From NCBI GenBank assembly GCA_963788685.1, contig CAWBHP010000012.1, positions 5,574 through 69,573 on the forward strand: a stretch of DNA of 64,000 nucleotides. The letters run 5' to 3'. Shown piece after piece: positions 3,918 through 15,161 of this stretch (position 1 is its first letter; every line of letters starts with the position of its first letter). This stretch comes from an uncultured Chloroflexia bacterium. Lineage in GTDB: Bacteria; Chloroflexota; Limnocylindria; Limnocylindrales; CSP1-4. The notes under the pieces were generated by a model that made no database searches, was not told the origin of the DNA, and saw nothing but the letters and a program-made list of their open reading frames with translations. Made by a program: the position numbers and the translations under genes.

Positions 3918-4062
3918 GCCATACACCGTACCATACGTTTGGATCGACGACATGGCGCGGACGAACTCAGGGTAGGGGAGGATGATGCTCACCGATCGAC
4001 CGACCGGACGGGCCACGTTCGGCAATGCCACGGAGTGCTACAGGGCTGCGTGAGAACACCAG

Positions 4063-4434
4063 ATGCCTGACGACACACGAATTGATCGCTGGTTATGCGC
4101 GGTTCGCCTTGTCAAGACCCGGCCCATGGCGACCCAGCTGTGTGAAGGCGGGCACGTCCGCGTCAACGGCAACCCGGCCAAGCCATCGACAAAGGTTCGT
4201 GCCGGCGACGTCGTGCATGCCCTGATCGCCGAACGTGAGCGCGTCGTCGAGGTCGTGCGGCCGATCGAAACGCGCGTCGGCGCGCCGGCCGCCGCCACGT
4301 GCTACGTCGACAACAGCCCACCGCCGGTGATCCGAGAGATCGCGCCCGGCATCAAGGCGGTCCGTGGGGAGGGCCGGCCGAGCAAGCGTCTTCGCCGCGA
4401 GCTCGAGCGGATTTGGCGGGATGGACGGGGCTGA
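4063..4434 (+). CDS. hslR: S4-domain RNA-binding protein, Hsp15 family
   Basis: RIDRWLCAVRLVKTR...HVRVNGNPAKPS S4 motif and C-terminal GRPSKRLRRELER typical of Hsp15. Confidence 0.9.
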   Translation: MPDDTRIDRWLCAVRLVKTRPMATQLCEGGHVRVNGNPAKPSTKVRAGDVVHALIAERERVVEVVRPIETRVGAPAAATCYVDNSPPPVIREIAPGIKAVRGEGRPSKRLRRELERIWRDGRG

Positions 4435-5006
4435 TGGCACAGTTGCTCTTCATCCAGGGCGGCGGCGCAGGCACGCACGACGAGTGGGACGACAAGCTGG
4501 TCGACAGCCTGCGGCGGGAGCTCGGGGACGGGTACGAGATCCGGTACCCGCGAATGCCCGCCGAGGACGACCCGAGCGACGCAGCATGGGGTCCAGCCAT
4601 CGCGGAAGCGACTGCCGCCCTCGAGGACGGCGCCGTCGTCGTCGGTCATTCGGTGGGCGGGACGCTCCTCATCCAGGCGCTCGCCGAGCGGCCGCCGGGC
4701 GTGAGACTCGCGGCAATCGTGCTGATCGCTGCGCCGTTCGTGGGCGACGGCGGGTGGCCGGGCGAGGAGTTCGAGCTGCCCGACGACCTCGGCGTGCTCC
4801 TGCCGGCCGGGGTCCCGGTCCACGTGTTCCATGGCCTCGAGGACGACGAGGTCCCGCCTGCGCATGCCGACCTGTACGCGCGCGCGATCCCGCAGGCGCA
4901 GGTGCATCGGCTGCCCGGGCGCGATCACCAGCTGGGTAACGACCTGGGGGAGGTGGCGACGCTGATCCGGACGCTCCAGAAGGCCTCTGGCGGAGAGGAG
5001 GACTAG
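4434..5006 (+). CDS. Alpha/beta hydrolase (RBBP9/YdeN-like)
   Basis: GHSVG nucleophile elbow, HGLEDDEV and a C-terminal His (GRDHQ); start overlaps the hslR stop. Confidence 0.85.
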   Translation: MAQLLFIQGGGAGTHDEWDDKLVDSLRRELGDGYEIRYPRMPAEDDPSDAAWGPAIAEATAALEDGAVVVGHSVGGTLLIQALAERPPGVRLAAIVLIAAPFVGDGGWPGEEFELPDDLGVLLPAGVPVHVFHGLEDDEVPPAHADLYARAIPQAQVHRLPGRDHQLGNDLGEVATLIRTLQKASGGEED

Positions 5007-5040: not shown

Positions 5041-6117
5041 TCAGCCCGATGCCTCCGTAACGTCGCGCGGATCCGTCAATCCGAACTCCGTCGTCAGCCG
5101 AGTCGTCGCGGCCCACGAGCCGCGGTCCTGGTTGCAGAGGACGACGATCGTGGTGGCCGCCGCCAGGTGGTGGGCCACCATCGTCGACACGCCCGGATCG
5201 GCGCCACCGTGGCCGAGGATCGTCACGGCGCCGTTCTCCACGACCAGCTCCAGGCCGTAGCCGTACTGCTCGAGGTCGGCCGACGGAGGCGCCTGTGGCG
5301 ACATCATCGCGGCCAGCAGGGGAGGGGAGAGGAGCCGGCCGCCGAGGAGCGCGTCGATCAGCCGCGCGAGATCCTGCGCCGACGTGATCATCCCGCCGTC
5401 GGGCATCCCCCTGGCGGTGAGGCTGAAGATGTTCGACCGCCAGGTGTCGGGCGGACCGTCGGCGTGCAGGTAGCCGTTCGCGTAGCGCCGCGGGTCCTGG
5501 TCGAGCTCCTCGAACGCCGTGTCGACCATGCCGGCCGGCCGAAGGACCTCGTCGGTCGCCACGTCGTAGAACGACCTGCCAGTCGCCGCCTCGATCACGA
5601 GGCCGGCGAGGATGAAGTTCGCGTCGGCATAGACGTATTTCTCGCCGGGCGGCCGCTGCGCGGGCAGGTCGGCGAAGAGGGGCAGCATGTCAGCCGGCAG
5701 CCGGGCCTTGCTCCCTGGGATCCGATCCAGAGCCCCGACGAACGAGTCCCACGTCTGGGCCGCGTCGTCGTGGTAGTTCGGCAGCCCCGAGGTATGCGAC
5801 AGGAGATGGTGGAGCGTGTGCTCGGGAGTCATGGCCTTGGTCCGGTGCTCCGCCGGCAGGACCTCGATCAGCGGCTGGTCGAGTCGGAGCTCCCCGCGAT
5901 CGACAAGCCTGAGCGCGGTCGTCGCGGTGACCATCTTGGTGACCGAGGCGACCCCGAAGCGGGTCTCGCTCGTGATCGGGACCTGGTGGCCTCGGTGCGC
6001 AATGCCGCCGGCGTACTCGAAGAGGGGAGCGCCGGCGGTCCAGACGAGGGCCACGCCGCTGAATTCGTGCGTTTCGACCCGGTGATCGAACCATGAGCGC
6101 AGGGCATCGGGGTCCAT
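5041..6117 (-). CDS. Serine hydrolase, beta-lactamase class C / DD-peptidase family
   Basis: ASVTK (SxxK), LLSHTSG, Y-x-x-x-N region and GHGG motifs. Confidence 0.88.
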   Translation of the reverse strand: MDPDALRSWFDHRVETHEFSGVALVWTAGAPLFEYAGGIAHRGHQVPITSETRFGVASVTKMVTATTALRLVDRGELRLDQPLIEVLPAEHRTKAMTPEHTLHHLLSHTSGLPNYHDDAAQTWDSFVGALDRIPGSKARLPADMLPLFADLPAQRPPGEKYVYADANFILAGLVIEAATGRSFYDVATDEVLRPAGMVDTAFEELDQDPRRYANGYLHADGPPDTWRSNIFSLTARGMPDGGMITSAQDLARLIDALLGGRLLSPPLLAAMMSPQAPPSADLEQYGYGLELVVENGAVTILGHGGADPGVSTMVAHHLAAATTIVVLCNQDRGSWAATTRLTTEFGLTDPRDVTEASG

Positions 6118-6140
6118 CGAGGCATTGTGACGCTCATCGG

Positions 6141-6368
6141 GCGCCGGTGCTTCCTCAGATGATCTGCGCCGGCGGCTGACACGGAGACGAGGGCGCCGCG
6201 ACCCGGGTGATGGCGGCGCTCGATGAAGCCCAGGTCGGTCGCGTCCTCCCAGACCGGCAGGCGCGGGCACGACGTCCGCCACGCCTCCATCGTCTCCAGG
6301 TACGGGCGCTCGCCCGGGCCGATCCACTCGAGGAGGTCGAGGATCAGGTTGTCGACGGTCTCGGACAT
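6141..6368 (-). CDS. Small hypothetical protein (MSETVDNLILDLLEWIG...WRTSCPRLPVWEDA); end uncertain
   Basis: Recognisable small conserved-hypothetical sequence embedded in ORF 5868..6764. No stop separates it from the upstream OGG-like gene, and its frame runs on into the hydrolase. Confidence 0.55.
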
Positions 6369-7263
6369 GGGGTCGCGGGGTCCCGCCCATTGGCCGCCTC
6401 GTGCGTCGGCCATCGATTGGAAGATCAGGTACTCGAGAGCCTCCGGCGACAGTTCGAGCGCGTGGGCCCCGGCGTGCATCTGCTGGAGATAGCCCTCGTA
6501 GATCGGCAGCGACCAGGATGCCGTGGCGAGGTCAGGTCGGCCATTCGTCGCCAGCCACGAACTCACCATTTCATCGTGGATGAGGGCCGACGGACGGGCG
6601 CCGACGGGCTGGCAGAAGGCGATGAACTTCATGCCGAACGCGGGCCCGAGTCCCTTGACACGGCAGTCCTTCGCCAAGCGGCCGTAAGCCGCCGCCGCGC
6701 CCTCGTCGCGCACGGATGTCGCGACAGCGAGGAGATGCGCTCGAGTCGTGGGGAGGGCGATCATCTTCGCCGTGAACGGGGAGGGGCCGTAGCCGACCCA
6801 AGCGAATCCCAGGTCATAGTCGCGATCGAAGGCAGCAGAGCTGACCTCTTCGCCGCGGCGGAACGGGCCGCGATGCGACAGGACGAATGCGCGACGAGAC
6901 GGGCCAGCTGCGATCAGCTTCGATGCTGGGAAACGCGTTCATCCAGCGGTCGCACGGCCAGGCGATGGCGATCTGGTCGGGCCGACCCGTGGTGATCCAG
7001 TGGCGGACCAGATCCTCGAGGGCCCGAGGAGGCGGGATGAGGCCTCCTACGCGGGCGAGACGCCCCTTCAGCAGGGGAGCGCGGGGCCGTCCAGTCCGCT
7101 TACTGTCTGATGCTCGAGGAGGTCGGTCGCCCGAGAGCCAGTCCACGAAACGTCTCGCGTCGCCAACGTAGGTGCTGATCGTGCCCGGGGTTCGCCCCGC
7201 GGCGACCAGTTGGTCCTCGTATTCGATCAGTGCTTGGTCCAGCTCGTCCTTCGTCCAAGTCAC
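6369..7263 (-). pseudogene. OGG-fold (8-oxoguanine glycosylase-like) protein with an N-terminal integrase-SAM-like domain, frameshifted
   Basis: N-terminus TWTKDELDQALIEYEDQLVAAGRTPGTISTYVGDARRFVDWL. After frame changes near 6900-6810 it reads (MTW)GFAWVGYGPS then KGLGPAFGMKFIAF...ALIHDEMV, an HhH-like OGG-fold pattern. Confidence 0.55.
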
Positions 7264-7777: not shown

Positions 7778-8701
7778 TTATCCGAGGAATACCGTGTCTG
7801 CGTGCCACTCGAGCAAGTCGCTCGATGGCGACAGTATCTGCGCGACGGGTGTTCGAATCTCCTGTCCATCAAGCGCTTAGTAGTCGCGGCCGTTCTCAAA
7901 CTCGGCGTGGATCCGCTTGCTTACTCGGACCCGCCATCCGGTGTGACAGTTACGTAGCCACGATCGAACAGCGTGTGAAGGTCCGATCGCAGAAGTAGCC
8001 CGTTGGAGACCTCATGTGGCCCCGCCTGGCCGTATGGCCGTATTGGCTGCTTCAAGCACCGGGAGCGTCCGCTCATTCGTAACGACGCAGCGGCGTTCGT
8101 ACGCGTCGGTGACCATCACCCTGAACGCGCCCTGACCCAGGCGCGGCCGCACCAGACTGGGCGCTCCGTAAGCGGGAGTGGGAACGTCTGATACACCGGG
8201 AAAGGGCGGCGGCCGCATCGCAGCGAGGGCGAATGAAATGCGCTCCCAAAGGACCTGACCTTCTCCGACCGCTAAATCGTAGGACTTACCGCGTGTGAGG
8301 TTCGAAGCCCAGTCTGACGGCGGTTAAATCCAGAGCTCTTCCGGAAGGAAGAAGGGTTCGACAAGGACCGTCGATCCTATCAACGTTAGGTCCGGATCAA
8401 TCTGACGCTCGCTGTATCCCTTGATGCGGTTGACGAACTCGAAGTAGGTAGCCGTCCCATTGTTCTCGCCGAACGTTTCCCAAGCGAACCTCGGCGTGAC
8501 CGTCGTGTGATGAGCAAAGAATCCGCCACCGACAATCCAGCCGCCGCTTCGAACGTGGAACTTAAGGAGCCAAGGGCTGCCAAGCGGCAAGGAGATCGCC
8601 GGCCTCTTGTCGGGCGCCCAGAAATTCACTTCCTCCAGCGGTGCGCGCGACGCGAGGAACTGGAACCACTCGCGGTCCGTGTTTGCGACCCAATACCGCA
8701 C
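7778..8701 (-). pseudogene. HNH endonuclease (putative type IV modification-dependent restriction enzyme), disrupted
   Basis: N-terminus MRYWVANTDREWF...EEVNFWAP; C-terminus RLGQGAFRVMVTDAYERRCVVT...LEAA..PY...HEVSNGLLLRSDLHTLFDRGYVTV...LEWHADTVFLG*. In-frame TAA at 8324-8326 and near 7878, plus a frameshift near 8050. Confidence 0.85.
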
Positions 8702-8781: not shown

Positions 8782-8946
8782 ATGAGCCGCCGCCGAGGCC
8801 GATCGGGCCGACCGGCAGGCCGTAACAAGCTGATCGAGATCGTTGTTACGCTGGCGTTCCTCGCCCTGCTGATCGCGGTGATCCTGCCTTGGGCCGGACA
8901 GGGTCTTGCTGCAGGGTTCGGCAGCATCATCGAACAGTCACGCTGA
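8782..8946 (+). CDS. Small single-TM protein (54 aa)
   Basis: GGGAGG RBS; basic N-terminus then hydrophobic helix IVVTLAFLALLIAVILPW; 13 bp upstream of the DUF2075 gene. Confidence 0.55.
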   Translation: MSRRRGRSGRPAGRNKLIEIVVTLAFLALLIAVILPWAGQGLAAGFGSIIEQSR

Positions 8947-8959
8947 ACGGCAGCGGACC

Positions 8960-10996
8960 GTGCACCTCTACCAGGGGACCAGCCAGCAGTTCATCGCCGA
9001 TGCGACGCAGGCGCGGCTCGCGAACCAGGTCGCTGAGCGCTTCTTTCACGAATTCCGGTACAAGCCCGGGCCGTCCGAGGTCAGGTCGTGGCAGAACTCC
9101 CTTGGCGCGATGGCGAATGTCCTCCAGCTGGCCGATCTCCGCGACCAGGGGATCCTCGTCGAGCTCAAGCTGCCGCTCTCGTCGAAGCGCCTGGATGTCC
9201 TGATCACGGGGCAGAACCCAACAACCGGCGACGCGGCCGTCGTCGTTGAGCTCAAGCAATGGACCCAGGTCGGCCGATCCAACATCACCGACTGCGTCAC
9301 GATCGAGATGGGCGGCCGCGAGCGGGACCACCTCCACCCGTCGCGCCAGGTCGCCCAATACCAGCGCTACCTGCTCGACACCCACCCGGCGTTCACCGAG
9401 GGCGGCGTCTCGCTCGACGCGTGCGCGTACCTCCACTACGCGACCCACGACCCGTCGTCGCCGCTCTATGGCAAGGACTTCGCGGCACTCCTGGCGACGA
9501 ACCCATCGTTCTCGGGCGACGAGACGGACCAGCTCGCGACCTACCTCGACGATCGCGTCGCCGGCCCGGACGAGGGCGGTGCCATCCTCGATCGGGTCGC
9601 CAACTCGGCCTTCCGCCCGCACAAGCGCCTGCTCGACCACGTCGCGCGAGTCATCCGCAACGAGCCGGTCTTCACGCTCCTCGACGAACAGCAGGTCGCC
9701 TACAACGCGATCATGGATTCGGTCCGATCGGCCGGCCAGAACCAACACAAGGTCGCGTTCATCGTCGCCGGCGGGCCCGGGACCGGGAAGTCGGTCCTCG
9801 CGGTCAACCTCGTCGCGGAACTCGCGTCGCTCGGACTCAGGACGATCCACGTCACCGGCTCGAAGGCGTTCACCGAGAACCTGCGCAAGATCGTCGGCGG
9901 CCGGGCGAGCGTCTTGTTCAAGTACTTCCGCGACACCGCGACCGTCGACGAGCCGATGGACGTCGTCATCCTCGACGAGGCCCACCGGATCCGATCGGTC
10001 AGCACGAGCCGCTTCACGCCGGCGACGGCGCGCACGGGCAAGACCCAGATGGAGGACATCCTCGACTCGACGCGGGTGTCGGTGTTCTTCATCGACGACC
10101 TCCAGGTCGTCCGACCCGGCGAGACCGGCAGCACCGATTCGATCCGCGAGGAGGCCGCCAAGCGCGGCCTCGAGGTCCGCGAGTTCGAGCTCGAGGCGCA
10201 GTTCCGATCGAACGGCTCGGACTCGTTCATCCGCTGGATCGACAACACGCTCGAACTCGATCGGACGCCGCAGGTCCTCTGGCCGATGGACGACGACTTC
10301 GACTTCCGGATCGTCGGCAACGTCCGCGAGCTCGACCAGATGATCCGCGCCAAGGCAGGGGAGGGGGCCACCGCCCGACTCGTCGCCGGCTTCTGCTGGC
10401 CGTGGTCCGACCCCGACGACGTCGGCGAGCTCGTCCCGGACGTCAGGGTAGGGGACTGGTCGATGCCCTGGAACGCGAAGTCGGACGCGCGGAAGCTCGG
10501 GCCCGGGATCCCGAAGTCGGACTTCTGGGCGAGCGCGAAGGAGGGGATCGACCAGGTCGGCTGCGTCTACACCGCGCAGGGCTTCGAGTTCGACTACGTC
10601 GGCGTGATCTTCGGCCCCGACCTCGTCTACCGGCCGATGGATGGGGGATGGGTCGGCCAGCGCGACCAGTCGCACGACCGCGTCGTCCGCAGCGGCGTCA
10701 CCGAGCAGCAGTTCACCGACTTCGTCAAGAGCACCTACCGCGTCCTGCTGACCCGCGGCCTCCGCGGCTGCTACGTCTACTTCATGGACGCGCCAACGCG
10801 GGACTTCTTCCTGAGCCGAATAGAGCGCGCAGCCCCCCGGAACCGGTTAGTCCCGAACACGAGCAACCGTACGGATCGTGAGTCGGCTCGACATCGGCGA
10901 CCTTGCCGACACAGCGCTCCTGAAAGCCGTCTGGAAGCGCCGCTTGCGTCGGCGCCTCAAAACAACTCGATTTCGGGACATGGAGCTAGCCCGTGA
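8960..10996 (+). CDS. DUF2075 (Schlafen group 3-like) PD-(D/E)xK nuclease-helicase fusion
   Basis: N-terminal E..KRLD...VVELKQW nuclease motif, Walker A GGPGTGKS, Walker B VILDEAHR, late motifs YTAQGFEFDY and YRVLLTRG; GTG start at 8960. The true stop may be near 10850. Confidence 0.88.
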   Translation: MHLYQGTSQQFIADATQARLANQVAERFFHEFRYKPGPSEVRSWQNSLGAMANVLQLADLRDQGILVELKLPLSSKRLDVLITGQNPTTGDAAVVVELKQWTQVGRSNITDCVTIEMGGRERDHLHPSRQVAQYQRYLLDTHPAFTEGGVSLDACAYLHYATHDPSSPLYGKDFAALLATNPSFSGDETDQLATYLDDRVAGPDEGGAILDRVANSAFRPHKRLLDHVARVIRNEPVFTLLDEQQVAYNAIMDSVRSAGQNQHKVAFIVAGGPGTGKSVLAVNLVAELASLGLRTIHVTGSKAFTENLRKIVGGRASVLFKYFRDTATVDEPMDVVILDEAHRIRSVSTSRFTPATARTGKTQMEDILDSTRVSVFFIDDLQVVRPGETGSTDSIREEAAKRGLEVREFELEAQFRSNGSDSFIRWIDNTLELDRTPQVLWPMDDDFDFRIVGNVRELDQMIRAKAGEGATARLVAGFCWPWSDPDDVGELVPDVRVGDWSMPWNAKSDARKLGPGIPKSDFWASAKEGIDQVGCVYTAQGFEFDYVGVIFGPDLVYRPMDGGWVGQRDQSHDRVVRSGVTEQQFTDFVKSTYRVLLTRGLRGCYVYFMDAPTRDFFLSRIERAAPRNRLVPNTSNRTDRESARHRRPCRHSAPESRLEAPLASAPQNNSISGHGASP

Positions 10997-12690
10997 CCCA
11001 CTCGAGTACCTAGGCCTTGAACGGGTACTCAATTCAGCGATCGAGGACCTCGTCCAGCAATTGCGTGATGGGTCCTACCGCCCACGGGCTCCAGAGTGGA
11101 TCCGGACGGCCAAGCGGGTGGGCCTAACTCGTCCACTGGCGTTTCTTTCGCCTCGAGATCAATTGGTCTTCAAGACGATCGTTGCATTGGCCGAGAATGA
11201 CCTACTCCTTGGAAGTCCCAAATGGACCCGACTTGGGCGCGCCGACCCCGGGAACGAGGACGACGACACCACGCTAGCTGAGAGTGGTTGGTTTCGATCT
11301 TGGCTCCGCCGCCAGGGCCAGCTTTGGGTCATCGACGAAACGTACGACTGGCTAGTCGAAAGCGATGTATCGAACTTCTTTCCATCAGTTCAGATCCAGG
11401 ATGTCTGCGCGTTCGTCCAGGACAACTCTCGCCTTGGAAATCGGTCTCATTCGCCTCCTTGAATACATGCTTCAGACGTTCTCCCCAATGGCCGCCTACC
11501 GCCCCTCTCGAGTAGGAGGATTACCGCAGGAGGGTTTTGACGTCAGCCGCGTGTTGGCGCACCTCTACCTTCGTCCATTGGACGAAGAGTTCGACTCCGA
11601 GGGTCAGGACGGGCGATACACGCGATGGGTAGACGACATCGCTGTGGGCGCAGATACGTGGGACGAGGCGCTCCGCATTGTCCAACGAATTCAATCGACG
11701 CTCGAAGGAATCGGCCTGTACCCGAACTCCGCTAAGACCCGCATCATTTCAGGTGGCGTATTCAGCCGCGAATACATGAAGTCCGAGAACGATTGGCTTG
11801 GAGAATTTGAAGACACCATCAAGTCCGGTGTACCGGACATCCCGGAATTTGGACGCCGGCTGCGGCGCCACCTCGAACGAGAGGATCGCCCTCGAGCATG
11901 GCCGCGGGTTCTGAGGAGGTACTACACGTATTCCCGACGCCTCAGGCATCCCTACCTTCTTGAAAAGTGGCCCAGCCATATTGATGATTCGCCAGACTCT
12001 GCTCGTTCGATGTTCGACTATCTCGCCACGTACCGCCTAACCGCGGCTCGGTTCAACCGCCTACTTGTCGTGCTCGATCGTTTCGGAACGGTCTACGAGG
12101 ACATTGAAATCCTCGCGCATGAGTACCTTGCGCTCGCTCCGTCGGTCGACTCGGTCCGGATCAACGGGCTGATTGCGGACTGGGCCTACGGGATCGTCGA
12201 ACGCGAGGCCGTACCCAGGCCGAGGATCGCCGCGGCGGCTTGCGTCACGCTCGGAAAGTTCGCAGATGGCCCTCGCCTGGATCAGCTCGCCCGGCTGTAT
12301 GGCAGGTGGAAGCGCGATACCGTTCTTAGAACTCAAACTGCAACGATCCTTCTAGCGGCCGGGCGAATTGATATGGCAGAGGTAACCCGCCTTCTCGGCC
12401 GATCGCAACTCGAGACCATCGAGAATCTTGAGTTCCTCATTGCCGTCGCCGGCGGCGAAAAGCAAGCCGTAGGCATGGCGCTGTCCGCCATGGAACCGGT
12501 CAAGAAGTACGGCCCGGATCGGGTCATGACCAAGCCGCGACTTATGTTCCTTGCGCCGTTGCTTAGAGCATCCGCACCTAGCCAATGGACAGCTATTTCT
12601 GGCCGATGGAAGAGGTCGCTTGGATCTAACCCGGACGGGCTTCGCGACCATGTTGCTGAGCGATGGTTATTCGGAGATTGGCCCTCGTGA
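10878..12690 (+). CDS. Reverse transcriptase of the UG/Abi (defence-associated) type with a helical C-terminal domain; one frameshift near 11440
   Basis: ORFs 10878..11462 and 11365..12690 join to about 600 aa with RT motifs KRVGLTRPL, SDVSNFFPSV (motif A), GLPQEGFDVSRVLAHLYL (motif B), YTRWVDD (motif C) and GLYPNSAKT; no intron maturase or HNH domain; about 300-aa helical tail. Confidence 0.88.
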
Positions 12691-12727
12691 CGCTTCAATG
12701 CGTGCGGCGATGGTTAGGGTGGGGAAG

Positions 12728-13918
12728 ATGGACCTAGAGGAGGCGCTCGAGCAGTTCGATCTCACCGCGGCGAACCTGTCGCGGTTAGAGGAGGTCTGGT
12801 CGGAGCTGGAGGGCCTAATCCCGACCGGAATCGCGTTCCTTGACGCCGGTCCGGAAGGGCGTCGCTATCGAGAGTTGACACGAGCCTATAGCGAGATCGC
12901 AAGCGCACTGCCTGCAATCTCAGGCTACCGAGTTGAGGTGACTCCGATGGAACTCAACGCGATCGGCCATGCCCGGCTTGACGCGGCGGAGCTAGGAGAG
13001 CCGTGGATCGAAGTGTCTCTAGAAGAGGACATTTACGGCCCGTCGAAGGCGATCGAGGAGTACCGCTTCCGGTTTGAGCGCGCCCGTCGCGATCTTGTGC
13101 GTGACCACGTGTCACGACTGTCCTCCGAGGTCGCCCAACACCTCGCGGAGTTGGCTGACGCCTACCCCTCGGATGGGATAAAGATTGAAGACCCTCGTAT
13201 CGCAAGCGTGAGGGGGGCGATTCGCCAAGTCGAGCGCCTTGCGGGCGACCAGGTCCCACGGACCAAGGCGTGGTCTGATCTCCTCCGGCACCTCGGATTC
13301 CACGAGGGCCAGGACATTCACGCCATGGCAACGGTCGATTGGCCAAGCGTGAGTGCTGACCTCGCGAGGGCGCTCTACACGGAGCTTGAGCCGCTACCCG
13401 TTGCCACCAGAGACCTTGATGACGTGCTTCGATCGAAGCCCCAAGGAAGCGTCTCGATCGACCTGCAATGGGCTGATCTCTCTCCTGACGACTTTGAGCG
13501 CGTCATCTTCAACCTCATCAGTGCGGCGGATGACTATGAGAACGCCCAGTGGTTGACGCCAACGAATGCCCCCGATCGCGGGCGTGACCTCGCGGCCGAG
13601 CACGTGCGGAGCGACACGCTCAGCGGCCCATCGCGCGAGCGCGTAATCGTGCAGGCACGCCACTGGTTGCAGAAGTCGGTCGGGCTTCCTCAAGTTCGAC
13701 AGCTCCTTGATCAGATGAAGTTATGGGAGCCTCCTCCCGTGCACACGCTGGTCATCGCGACCAGCGGACGGTTCACGACAGATGCCGTCTCGTGGATCGA
13801 GCGACACAACAATGCCGATGACCGACCGGTAATTGTCATGTGGCCGAACAGTCACCTAGAGACCTTGGTCGCGAGACGCCCTGAGCTGTCGGCGCTGTTC
13901 CCGCGTCGCAACCGGTAG
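12728..13918 (+). CDS. Mrr-like (Mrr_cat) restriction endonuclease with a long helical N-terminal domain
   Basis: C-terminal WADLSPDDFERVIFNL...PDRGRDL...IVQARHW...LVIATSGRFTTDA...MWPNSHLE matches the Mrr catalytic domain layout. Confidence 0.85.
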   Translation: MDLEEALEQFDLTAANLSRLEEVWSELEGLIPTGIAFLDAGPEGRRYRELTRAYSEIASALPAISGYRVEVTPMELNAIGHARLDAAELGEPWIEVSLEEDIYGPSKAIEEYRFRFERARRDLVRDHVSRLSSEVAQHLAELADAYPSDGIKIEDPRIASVRGAIRQVERLAGDQVPRTKAWSDLLRHLGFHEGQDIHAMATVDWPSVSADLARALYTELEPLPVATRDLDDVLRSKPQGSVSIDLQWADLSPDDFERVIFNLISAADDYENAQWLTPTNAPDRGRDLAAEHVRSDTLSGPSRERVIVQARHWLQKSVGLPQVRQLLDQMKLWEPPPVHTLVIATSGRFTTDAVSWIERHNNADDRPVIVMWPNSHLETLVARRPELSALFPRRNR

Positions 13919-13925
13919 CCCGGCG

Positions 13926-13955
13926 GGCAGACGCAACTAACGGGCATCCGGTAGC
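13926..13955 (-). repeat. Highly degenerate copy of the dif-like site
   Basis: GGCAGACGCAACTAACG-GGCATCCGGTAGC aligns with 14064-14094 at 24 of 31 positions with one gap. Confidence 0.45.
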
Positions 13956-14063: not shown

Positions 14064-14094
14064 GGCAGACATAACTCACGCGGCAACCGGAAGT
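14064..14094 (-). repeat. Degenerate dif-like (Xer) site: XerD-type arm and spacer kept, XerC-type arm altered
   Basis: GGCAGACATAA CTCACG CGGCAACCGGAAGT versus TGCAGACATAA CTCACC TTATCGGAAGT at 15134. Confidence 0.65.
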
Positions 14095-14114: not shown

Positions 14115-14266
14115 GCCCGCACGTGCTGCGGGGACAGCAGCCCACGCCGGTCGTCCGGTCGTCCGAGAGACCGCGCCCGGCATCAAAGGCCGTCCGTGGC
14201 GAGGGCCGGCCGCGCAAGCGTCTTCGCAGCGAACTCAAGCGAATGTCTCGAGCGCGAGCGGGCTGA
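14115..14266 (+). pseudogene. Degenerate second copy of the 3' end of hslR
   Basis: Aligns with about 4290-4434 (CGCGCCCGGCATCAA, GAGGGCCGGCCG.GCAAGCGTCTTCGC, same GGCTGA stop); has an 8-bp internal duplication and a 1-bp insertion. Confidence 0.8.
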
Positions 14267-14342
14267 TGCTGATCGGTCGTGCCGAAGTCCCGCCTGAGAG
14301 TGCCGCGTGCCAAGGCCGGGAGCGCTGTGTATCGTGCACCGC

Positions 14343-15133: not shown

Positions 15134-15161
15134 TGCAGACATAACTCACCTTATCGGAAGT
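15134..15161 (-). other. dif-like XerCD recombination site (candidate chromosome dimer-resolution site)
   Basis: The minus strand reads ACTTCCGATAA GGTGAG TTATGTCTGCA: 11-6-11 layout with ATAA/TTAT inner ends. The left arm resembles Bacillus dif ACTTCC...AA and the right arm starts with the conserved TTATGT. Confidence 0.75.

Follow-up and report, generated by a model that had tools for sequence, protein, structure and literature searches.

In the present study, a 64,000-nt stretch of DNA from an uncultured Chloroflexia bacterium (the window) was analysed with regard to three genes that follow one another in the same orientation at 8960-13918 (+), whose products are a DUF2075 nuclease-helicase resembling Nhi, a reverse transcriptase (RT) and an Mrr_cat protein of 396 aa. 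The locus probably represents three autonomous single-gene anti-phage candidates stacked in a 9.8-kb variable island beside the chromosomal dif site. First, the RT is a new member of the known group UG13a. Second, the association of the three genes recurs in one RT clade only, and both partner families are mostly free of an RT; the comparative evidence thus gives no support to the proposal, made in an earlier sequence-only reading of this DNA, that the trio forms a new three-gene defence module. The alternative offered in the same reading, unrelated defence genes stacked together, is better supported than the module. Third, the more unusual trait of the locus is the dif-linked layout of its island.

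The identity of the RT was examined from several sides. Both halves of the protein, which is split between two frames in the assembly, had the PADLOC model RT_UG13a as their best match, at E=7.7e-35 over profile positions 12-182 of 589 for the N-terminal half and at E=6.6e-57 over positions 192-570 of 589 for the C-terminal half; the runner-up UG21 reached 3.6e-13 and 8e-21, respectively, and the other RT models were also far below RT_UG13a. Motif A reads SDVSNFF (in SDVSNFFPS) and motif C reads WVDD (in RWVDDIAV), with D164, D253 and D254 invariant across 29 RT homologues. Intact homologues are about 600 aa long and reach 79% identity. In the AlphaFold model of the 79% homologue (predicted local distance difference test score, pLDDT, 86), the RT domain is followed by an all-helical region at residues ~300-600, in keeping with the C-terminal alpha-helical repeat (alphaRep) domain of this RT class, and in a Foldseek search with this model the best full-length PDB match was AbiK (596 of 600 columns), with DRT6, DRT4/UG15 and Abi-P2 also among the top matches. 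The NCBIfam equivalog cut-offs were missed for Drt3a (55.9 vs 200), Drt4 (24.2 vs 450) and Drt5 (19.9 vs 550), and likewise for retron St85 (32.8 vs 235) and group II RTs (70 vs 300). Because the PADLOC match, the motifs, the helical C-terminus, the AbiK-like fold and the NCBIfam scores below cut-off agree, the protein is classified, on sequence and predicted structure, as a member of group UG13a among the Class 1 UG/Abi RTs. For a non-coding RNA (ncRNA) partner, no Rfam match and no tRNA or transfer-messenger RNA (tmRNA) were found within 1-20/30 kb, and there is no intergenic room for one either. A plasmid collection searched for close relatives of the RT held none above 29% identity. The domain assignments of the sequence-only reading (DUF2075, UG/Abi RT and Mrr_cat) were right, corresponding to PF09848, RT_UG13a and PF04471. 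Its further statement that the trio is not a named system stands in that no named multi-gene system was matched and fails in that the RT falls into an already described group, whose PADLOC model RT_UG13a is labelled as a defence-associated reverse transcriptase (DRT).

UG13a is one of 16 UG/Abi groups of inconclusive defence role in the reference survey, where Mestre et al. (2022) list it with an inconclusive defence prediction and name no partner gene (PMC9226505). The Class 1 RTs characterised so far, for example DRT4 and DRT6, are single genes whose products make protein-primed untemplated single-stranded DNA (ssDNA) and are triggered by phage ssDNA-binding proteins (PMC12783706; 10.64898/2026.10.21.760695; PMC13174585). 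A defence role for UG13a is supported by the results obtained herein, because RTs of this group lie repeatedly among defence genes, including Nhi-like, Mrr, TIR, SIR2, HNH, OLD, type I, MmeI-like and PLD-helicase genes.

The strongest evidence on the question of a module came from the neighbourhoods of the RT homologues. In total, about 50 RT loci were tabulated, 41 from genome and metagenome scans and nine added from the eight closest homologues, and open reading frames (ORFs) within 5 kb of each RT were clustered all against all; the gene calling based on GC content at third codon positions (GC3), which misses low-GC3 island genes, was used for picking neighbour ORFs only. Three neighbours alone were recurrent, namely DUF2075 (six loci, several of them remnants, with L047 as a seventh), Mrr (three loci, in addition to L098/L099) and an MmeI-like gene (four loci). 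The remaining neighbours were varied and comprised an OLD-family nuclease, PLD-helicase-DUF3427, NERD-kinase, an SNF2 helicase, type I HsdR, SIR2 and HNH proteins, as well as IS66 and IS110 transposases, NusA and methylmalonyl-CoA mutase. The sequence-only reading had named solitary RT homologues, or random neighbours, as the outcome that would speak against a module, and this is largely what the tabulation gave.

In the RT tree, all DUF2075-linked RTs fall into one clade, with a support of 96 in the SH-like approximate likelihood ratio test (SH-aLRT). Within this clade the trio is present in the window and in loci L002 and L049. L098/L099, which are syntenic with the window, carry an Mrr gene whose product is 86% identical and, at the contig edge, the last 71 aa of the RT (84.5%). 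L042 has the RT (79%) and DUF2075 (93%), with a TIR gene at the position of the window's Mrr gene. In L047 the RT is intact and DUF2075 is reduced to a 40-aa N-terminal remnant, L043 and L012 hold C-terminal DUF2075 remnants, and in L048 a SIR2 gene lies upstream of the RT and there is no DUF2075. Just outside the clade, the closest RTs (L044, L046 and L050) are accompanied by neither DUF2075 nor Mrr, and both partners are absent from the ~40 other RT loci, including all of the more distant UG13a loci. Co-occurrence of the partners with the RT was thus found in one RT clade and not across independent lineages or contexts.

Even within the clade, DUF2075 and the RT have not moved as one block. 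Between the window and L042, nucleotide identity falls from 97% to 72% within ~150 nt in the 3' tail of DUF2075, ~100 nt before the RT start, and at the same point the identity between the window and L049 falls from 95% to 59-61%. This drop shows that the DUF2075 body and the RT cassette recombine as units of their own, and the DUF2075 body has recently been exchanged or homogenised between islands with anciently diverged RT alleles. In the comparison of the window with L002, identity was also observed to fall, from 85 to 66%, at window positions 10760-10880, inside the last ~30 DUF2075 codons.

The partner families were also followed away from the RT, among others in a sample of 401 genomes of the phylum. 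The RT model matched eight of the 401 genomes at E<=1e-20, only two others being strong; DUF2075 occurred in 16 and the Mrr family in one, and all three were found in the window genome only. Full-length DUF2075 homologues (46-79% identity) in the 15 other genomes of the phylum had no RT or Mrr within ~8 kb, and Mrr homologues at 71%, 63% and 47% identity had no RT nearby. Three of the four RT-linked members of the Mrr tree lie in a five-member subclade together with two RT-less members, and the fourth, from L002, lies just outside. At least 722 full-length homologues make up the Mrr family, whose proteins are ~395 aa long; Streptomyces and Nocardia are among the taxa in which they are common.

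The product of the first gene matches PF09848 (SLFN-g3_helicase) over the full-length domain (E=2.1e-85, 287.5 bits). The motifs RLD...ELKQW (PD-(D/E)XK-like), GGPGTGKS and DEAHR are invariant in 10 DUF2075 homologues, and this domain order is that of Nhi and of Nhi-like single-protein defences (10.1101/776245; 10.1101/2022.05.11.491447). PADLOC returned partial matches to PDC-S41, Nhi and AbiO, of which the Nhi model covers residues 257-443 only, that is, the Walker region (E=4.7e-14). Residues 1-250 were matched by nothing in Pfam or the PDB and were not covered by a full match to the PADLOC Nhi model, and the putative nuclease domain is proposed from the conserved motif only; a PDB sequence search for the protein found no homologue.

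In the third protein, a helical N-terminal domain at residues ~1-215 precedes an Mrr_cat domain at the C-terminus, which matches PF04471 with 42.9 bits (cut-off 21). In the model, residues 1-215 form long helices, with no winged helix as in E. coli Mrr. The fold search gave weak restriction-endonuclease matches on the C-terminal part only and none in the PDB for the N-terminal domain, and a PDB sequence search for the protein found nothing. The active site reads ...GRD...VIVQARHW, with QAR for QxK, so that the catalytic D...(E/Q)xK triad is not matched, lysine being replaced with arginine; most homologues have QAK or QCK, and the subclade of the window protein has QAR or QCR (alignment A2). 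This substitution is common to the whole subclade, whose sequence is otherwise conserved, and is also found in the RT-less Mrr proteins P0067 and P0068.

The island itself was delimited from its borders. The sequence-only reading had placed the genes in an accessory island, and three observations bear this out: an insert of 9.8 kb is bracketed by two direct copies of ~113 nt of the hslR 3' end, 9.83 kb apart; GC content drops to 0.575-0.62 at 11-14 kb, compared with ~0.68-0.72 in the rest of the window; and the same-genus genome G285 has none of the three genes. The left repeat copy is the 3' end of hslR itself (Hsp15-like, with a weak Hsp15 match) at 4324-4436 (+), in repeat families D1 and D9. 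The right copy, 81-91% identical, lies at 14155-14268 (+), after decayed dif copies and ~870 nt before an intact dif-like site of the actinobacterial type, GCAGACATAACTCACCTTATCGGAAG, at 15135-15160 (+). Identical 26-mers occur in L012, L047 and L094, and copies of GCAGACATAACTCACCTTATCGGAAG with 1-5 mismatches occur in L098, L086, L042, L002, L048 and L049; the positions are L047:3443, L048:5537, L049:3329, L098:1496, L012:11791, L094:7791, L086:2136, L042:12365 and L002:13310. Two degenerate copies stand closer to the genes in the window. One, recognised by reading the sequence, begins 8 nt past the Mrr stop at 13926-13955 (+), where L098 and L049 have an intact or near-intact dif; the other, at 14064-14094 (+) in repeat family D18, keeps the XerD-side arm and the spacer and has the other arm altered. 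The 92%-conserved segment at 4059-4434 was considered as a tmRNA integration site and rejected, being hslR coding sequence.

In the relatives, the dif site lies 2 nt after the RT stop in L047, overlaps this stop in L048, follows a degenerate RT by ~60 nt in L012 and lies ~6 kb beyond the RT in L042. Relative to the Mrr stop, it overlaps in L049 and follows after 10 nt in L098 and after 364 nt in L002, and in genome G221 it stands just past a DUF2075 fragment. Because every clade locus with a findable dif site ends there (the contig of L043 stops right after the RT, with the dif side out of view), these loci are all versions of a single hotspot next to dif, within one bacterial family. In genome G333 of the same family (L086, on the reverse strand of contig C3), DUF2075 is found at the syntenic position with 82% nucleotide identity, and is followed, before dif, by a 228-aa protein with two transmembrane segments, another, short piece of DUF2075 and a protein of 708 aa whose C-terminal part has HEAT-like repeats (weak HEAT_2 match). 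These downstream genes are all low in GC3, a different cargo at the same hotspot. The way in which dif abuts or overlaps the stop of the last gene, whether RT, Mrr or a DUF2075 fragment, suggests a putative Xer/dif-linked hypervariable defence hotspot. The insertion of one gene at a time by Xer, considered as the builder of the stack, is unsupported: local alignments for dif scars at the DUF2075-RT and RT-Mrr junctions were no better than shuffles (the best, in the L098 spacer, at p ~0.1), and since there are no such scars, the genes have not been stacked by recent one-gene Xer insertions.

With respect to the gene boundaries, the ORFs confirm the three co-oriented and tightly packed genes described in the sequence-only reading. 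The DUF2075 gene is placed at 8960-10881 (+), within an ORF at 8906/8960-10996 whose GTG at 8960 is the start also used in relatives. As assembled, this ORF reads on to 10996, which is 119 nt inside the RT. In L042 the DUF2075 stop and the RT start overlap as GTGA, and because the homologous '...PYGS*' is out of frame in the window, the 3' tail of DUF2075, which is poorly conserved, probably holds a second indel. The RT gene at 10878-12690 (+) is present as two ORFs (10878-11462 and 11365-12690), split by a one-base insertion, AA to AAA, at 11438-11440 (+): nucleotide alignment shows GGAAATC at 11436-11442 in the window and GG-AATC in intact L042, L047 and L048, so that the position of the frameshift called earlier, 11440, was exact. 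The Mrr gene lies at 12728-13918 (+) within an ORF at 12551-13918, and since homologues begin with MDLE its start is set at 12728, leaving the RT-Mrr spacer of 37 nt at 12691-12727 (+) that had been reported. This spacer has no dif-like remnant, and a scan of it for promoters and terminators gave nothing above chance. In L049, the RT and Mrr genes overlap by 11 nt.

Two other genes lie upstream in the same island. An HNH_2-type nuclease gene with an EVE/PUA-like N-terminus, interrupted by in-frame stops, is found at 7781-8701 (-), divergent from DUF2075. In a single tblastn alignment it is 64% identical, over 311 aa, to an HNH_2 protein of 308 aa that is intact in L047, and the window frame contains ORF pieces of 125 and 68 aa only. 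Upstream of it, a putative DNA glycosylase domain of the OGG-like kind (PF21790, E=5e-20) was noted at 5868-6764 (-).

Herein, we propose a working scheme in which each of the three proteins would act on its own, the biochemical activities of all three being taken from knowledge of their families. By analogy with Nhi, the Nhi-like enzyme, with a PD-(D/E)XK-type nuclease and a DUF2075 helicase of superfamily 1, may degrade phage replication intermediates. By analogy with AbiK, Abi-P2, DRT4 and DRT6, the UG13a RT would act alone as an oligomer that makes protein-primed untemplated ssDNA, and this ssDNA might be stabilised or recognised by a phage ssDNA-binding protein, leading to abortive infection. 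The two-domain Mrr-fold protein may be an independent restriction-like nuclease or a sensor. The tight spacing would in this scheme arise because the genes were inherited together, as one variant of the island, in a single bacterial family. All instances of the trio lie in one RT clade at one chromosomal hotspot, and its recurrence therefore amounts to approximately one evolutionary event.

Several observations weigh against three autonomous genes, and they also favour a clade-specific functional operon. Such an operon would be a new multi-gene variant of Class 1 DRT, in which UG13a ssDNA, or phage activation of the RT, is sensed or processed by the Nhi-like and/or the Mrr-fold protein, and the downstream effector is exchangeable between Mrr and TIR. 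The junctions are operon-like, with the GTGA overlap of DUF2075 and RT in L042 and, between RT and Mrr, the short gap in the window or the overlap in L049. The DUF2075-RT junction, including the divergent DUF2075 tail, persists across RT alleles that are 61-79% identical, and of the eight clade loci whose downstream side can be seen, four (the window, L098/L099, L049 and L002) keep RT-Mrr. More generally, the window, L002, L049, L098/L099 and L042 have kept the trio or a pair, with RT identity down to 61% and Mrr identity down to 50%. The lack of dif scars at the internal junctions gives no sign of recent Xer assembly, and the TIR gene in the place of Mrr in L042 could be effector swapping. 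For the operon itself, the arginine of the Mrr subclade linked to the RT may point to an altered function, and nuclease, helicase or SLATT partners are described for other Class 1 groups (PMC9226505). Despite these points, an operon of this kind is considered a possible but unlikely explanation. All of its cases come down to that one evolutionary event; intact RTs without either partner persist in L047 and L048; neither partner is present in L044, L046 and L050 or in any of the more distant UG13a loci; both partner families mostly live without an RT; the lysine-to-arginine change is shared by RT-less P0067 and P0068; and a recombination boundary runs between the DUF2075 body and the RT. A bolder form is more doubtful again, namely the incorporation, in this lineage, of a UG13a RT into a true operon in which the Nhi-like protein and the Mrr-fold protein, with its arginine-substituted site and its unmatched helical sensor domain and exchangeable for TIR, read or process untemplated ssDNA, as a new multi-gene Class 1 DRT type on a dif-linked island.

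It is quite improbable that the island is decaying and the module non-functional in this host, with the RT frameshift, the DUF2075 tail indel, the HNH stops and the Mrr substitution as real lesions: the stops within the HNH_2 frame, which is intact in the L047 homologue, a pair of indels lying within 600 nt, the decayed dif copies with a duplicated hslR fragment downstream and QAR instead of QxK would fit such decay, but essential rpoB and housekeeping miaA are frameshifted too and the assembly, in 16 contigs, is only 64% complete, a sign of assembly indels, the RT indel sits in a short A-run, the RT halves are otherwise open and 79% identical to an intact homologue, and the arginine is common to the whole, otherwise conserved Mrr subclade. 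More specifically, CheckM gives the 3.36-Mb assembly a contamination of 0.36%, rpoB (G000:C11:548449-551782) is broken across two frames, and miaA (window ~24595) is also in two frames, while hflX and miaB in the window are intact. For these reasons the RT frameshift is probably an assembly indel rather than the mark of a pseudogene. The same observations point to frequent indel errors in the assembly, and frameshift calls in this genome are unsafe without read support.

The findings have several implications. The locus and its relatives offer intact UG13a orthologues for testing. The trio is also a caution against over-reading tight gene packing, since its recurrence stems from one hotspot in one lineage. 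Finally, the defence island bordered by dif is a lead on how defence genes are shuffled.

The three genes were also compared with known systems. The RT agrees with UG13a in covering profile positions 12-570 of 589, in its length of ~600 aa, in its RT motifs and all-helical C-terminal domain, and in having no Rfam match, no room for an ncRNA and usually no conserved partner; it differs in that the RTs of the window clade stand between Nhi-like and Mrr_cat genes with operon-like junctions, and these partners are not named by Mestre et al. With AbiK, Abi-P2, DRT4 (UG15) and DRT6 it shares the predicted fold and, by analogy, the expected protein-primed, template-independent ssDNA synthesis, whereas sequence identity is 10-13% only. 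The nuclease-helicase resembles Nhi of S. epidermidis and the Nhi-like proteins of Millman et al. (2022) in an N-terminal PD-(D/E)XK-type motif followed by a DUF2075 helicase with Walker A and B, although there is no close sequence relationship between them. Similar to Mrr-type (type IV) restriction endonucleases, the third protein has a C-terminal Mrr_cat domain of the PD-(D/E)XK type and stands alone in the other contexts examined, but it carries a helical N-terminus of ~215 aa instead of a winged helix, and the lysine of QxK is replaced with arginine.

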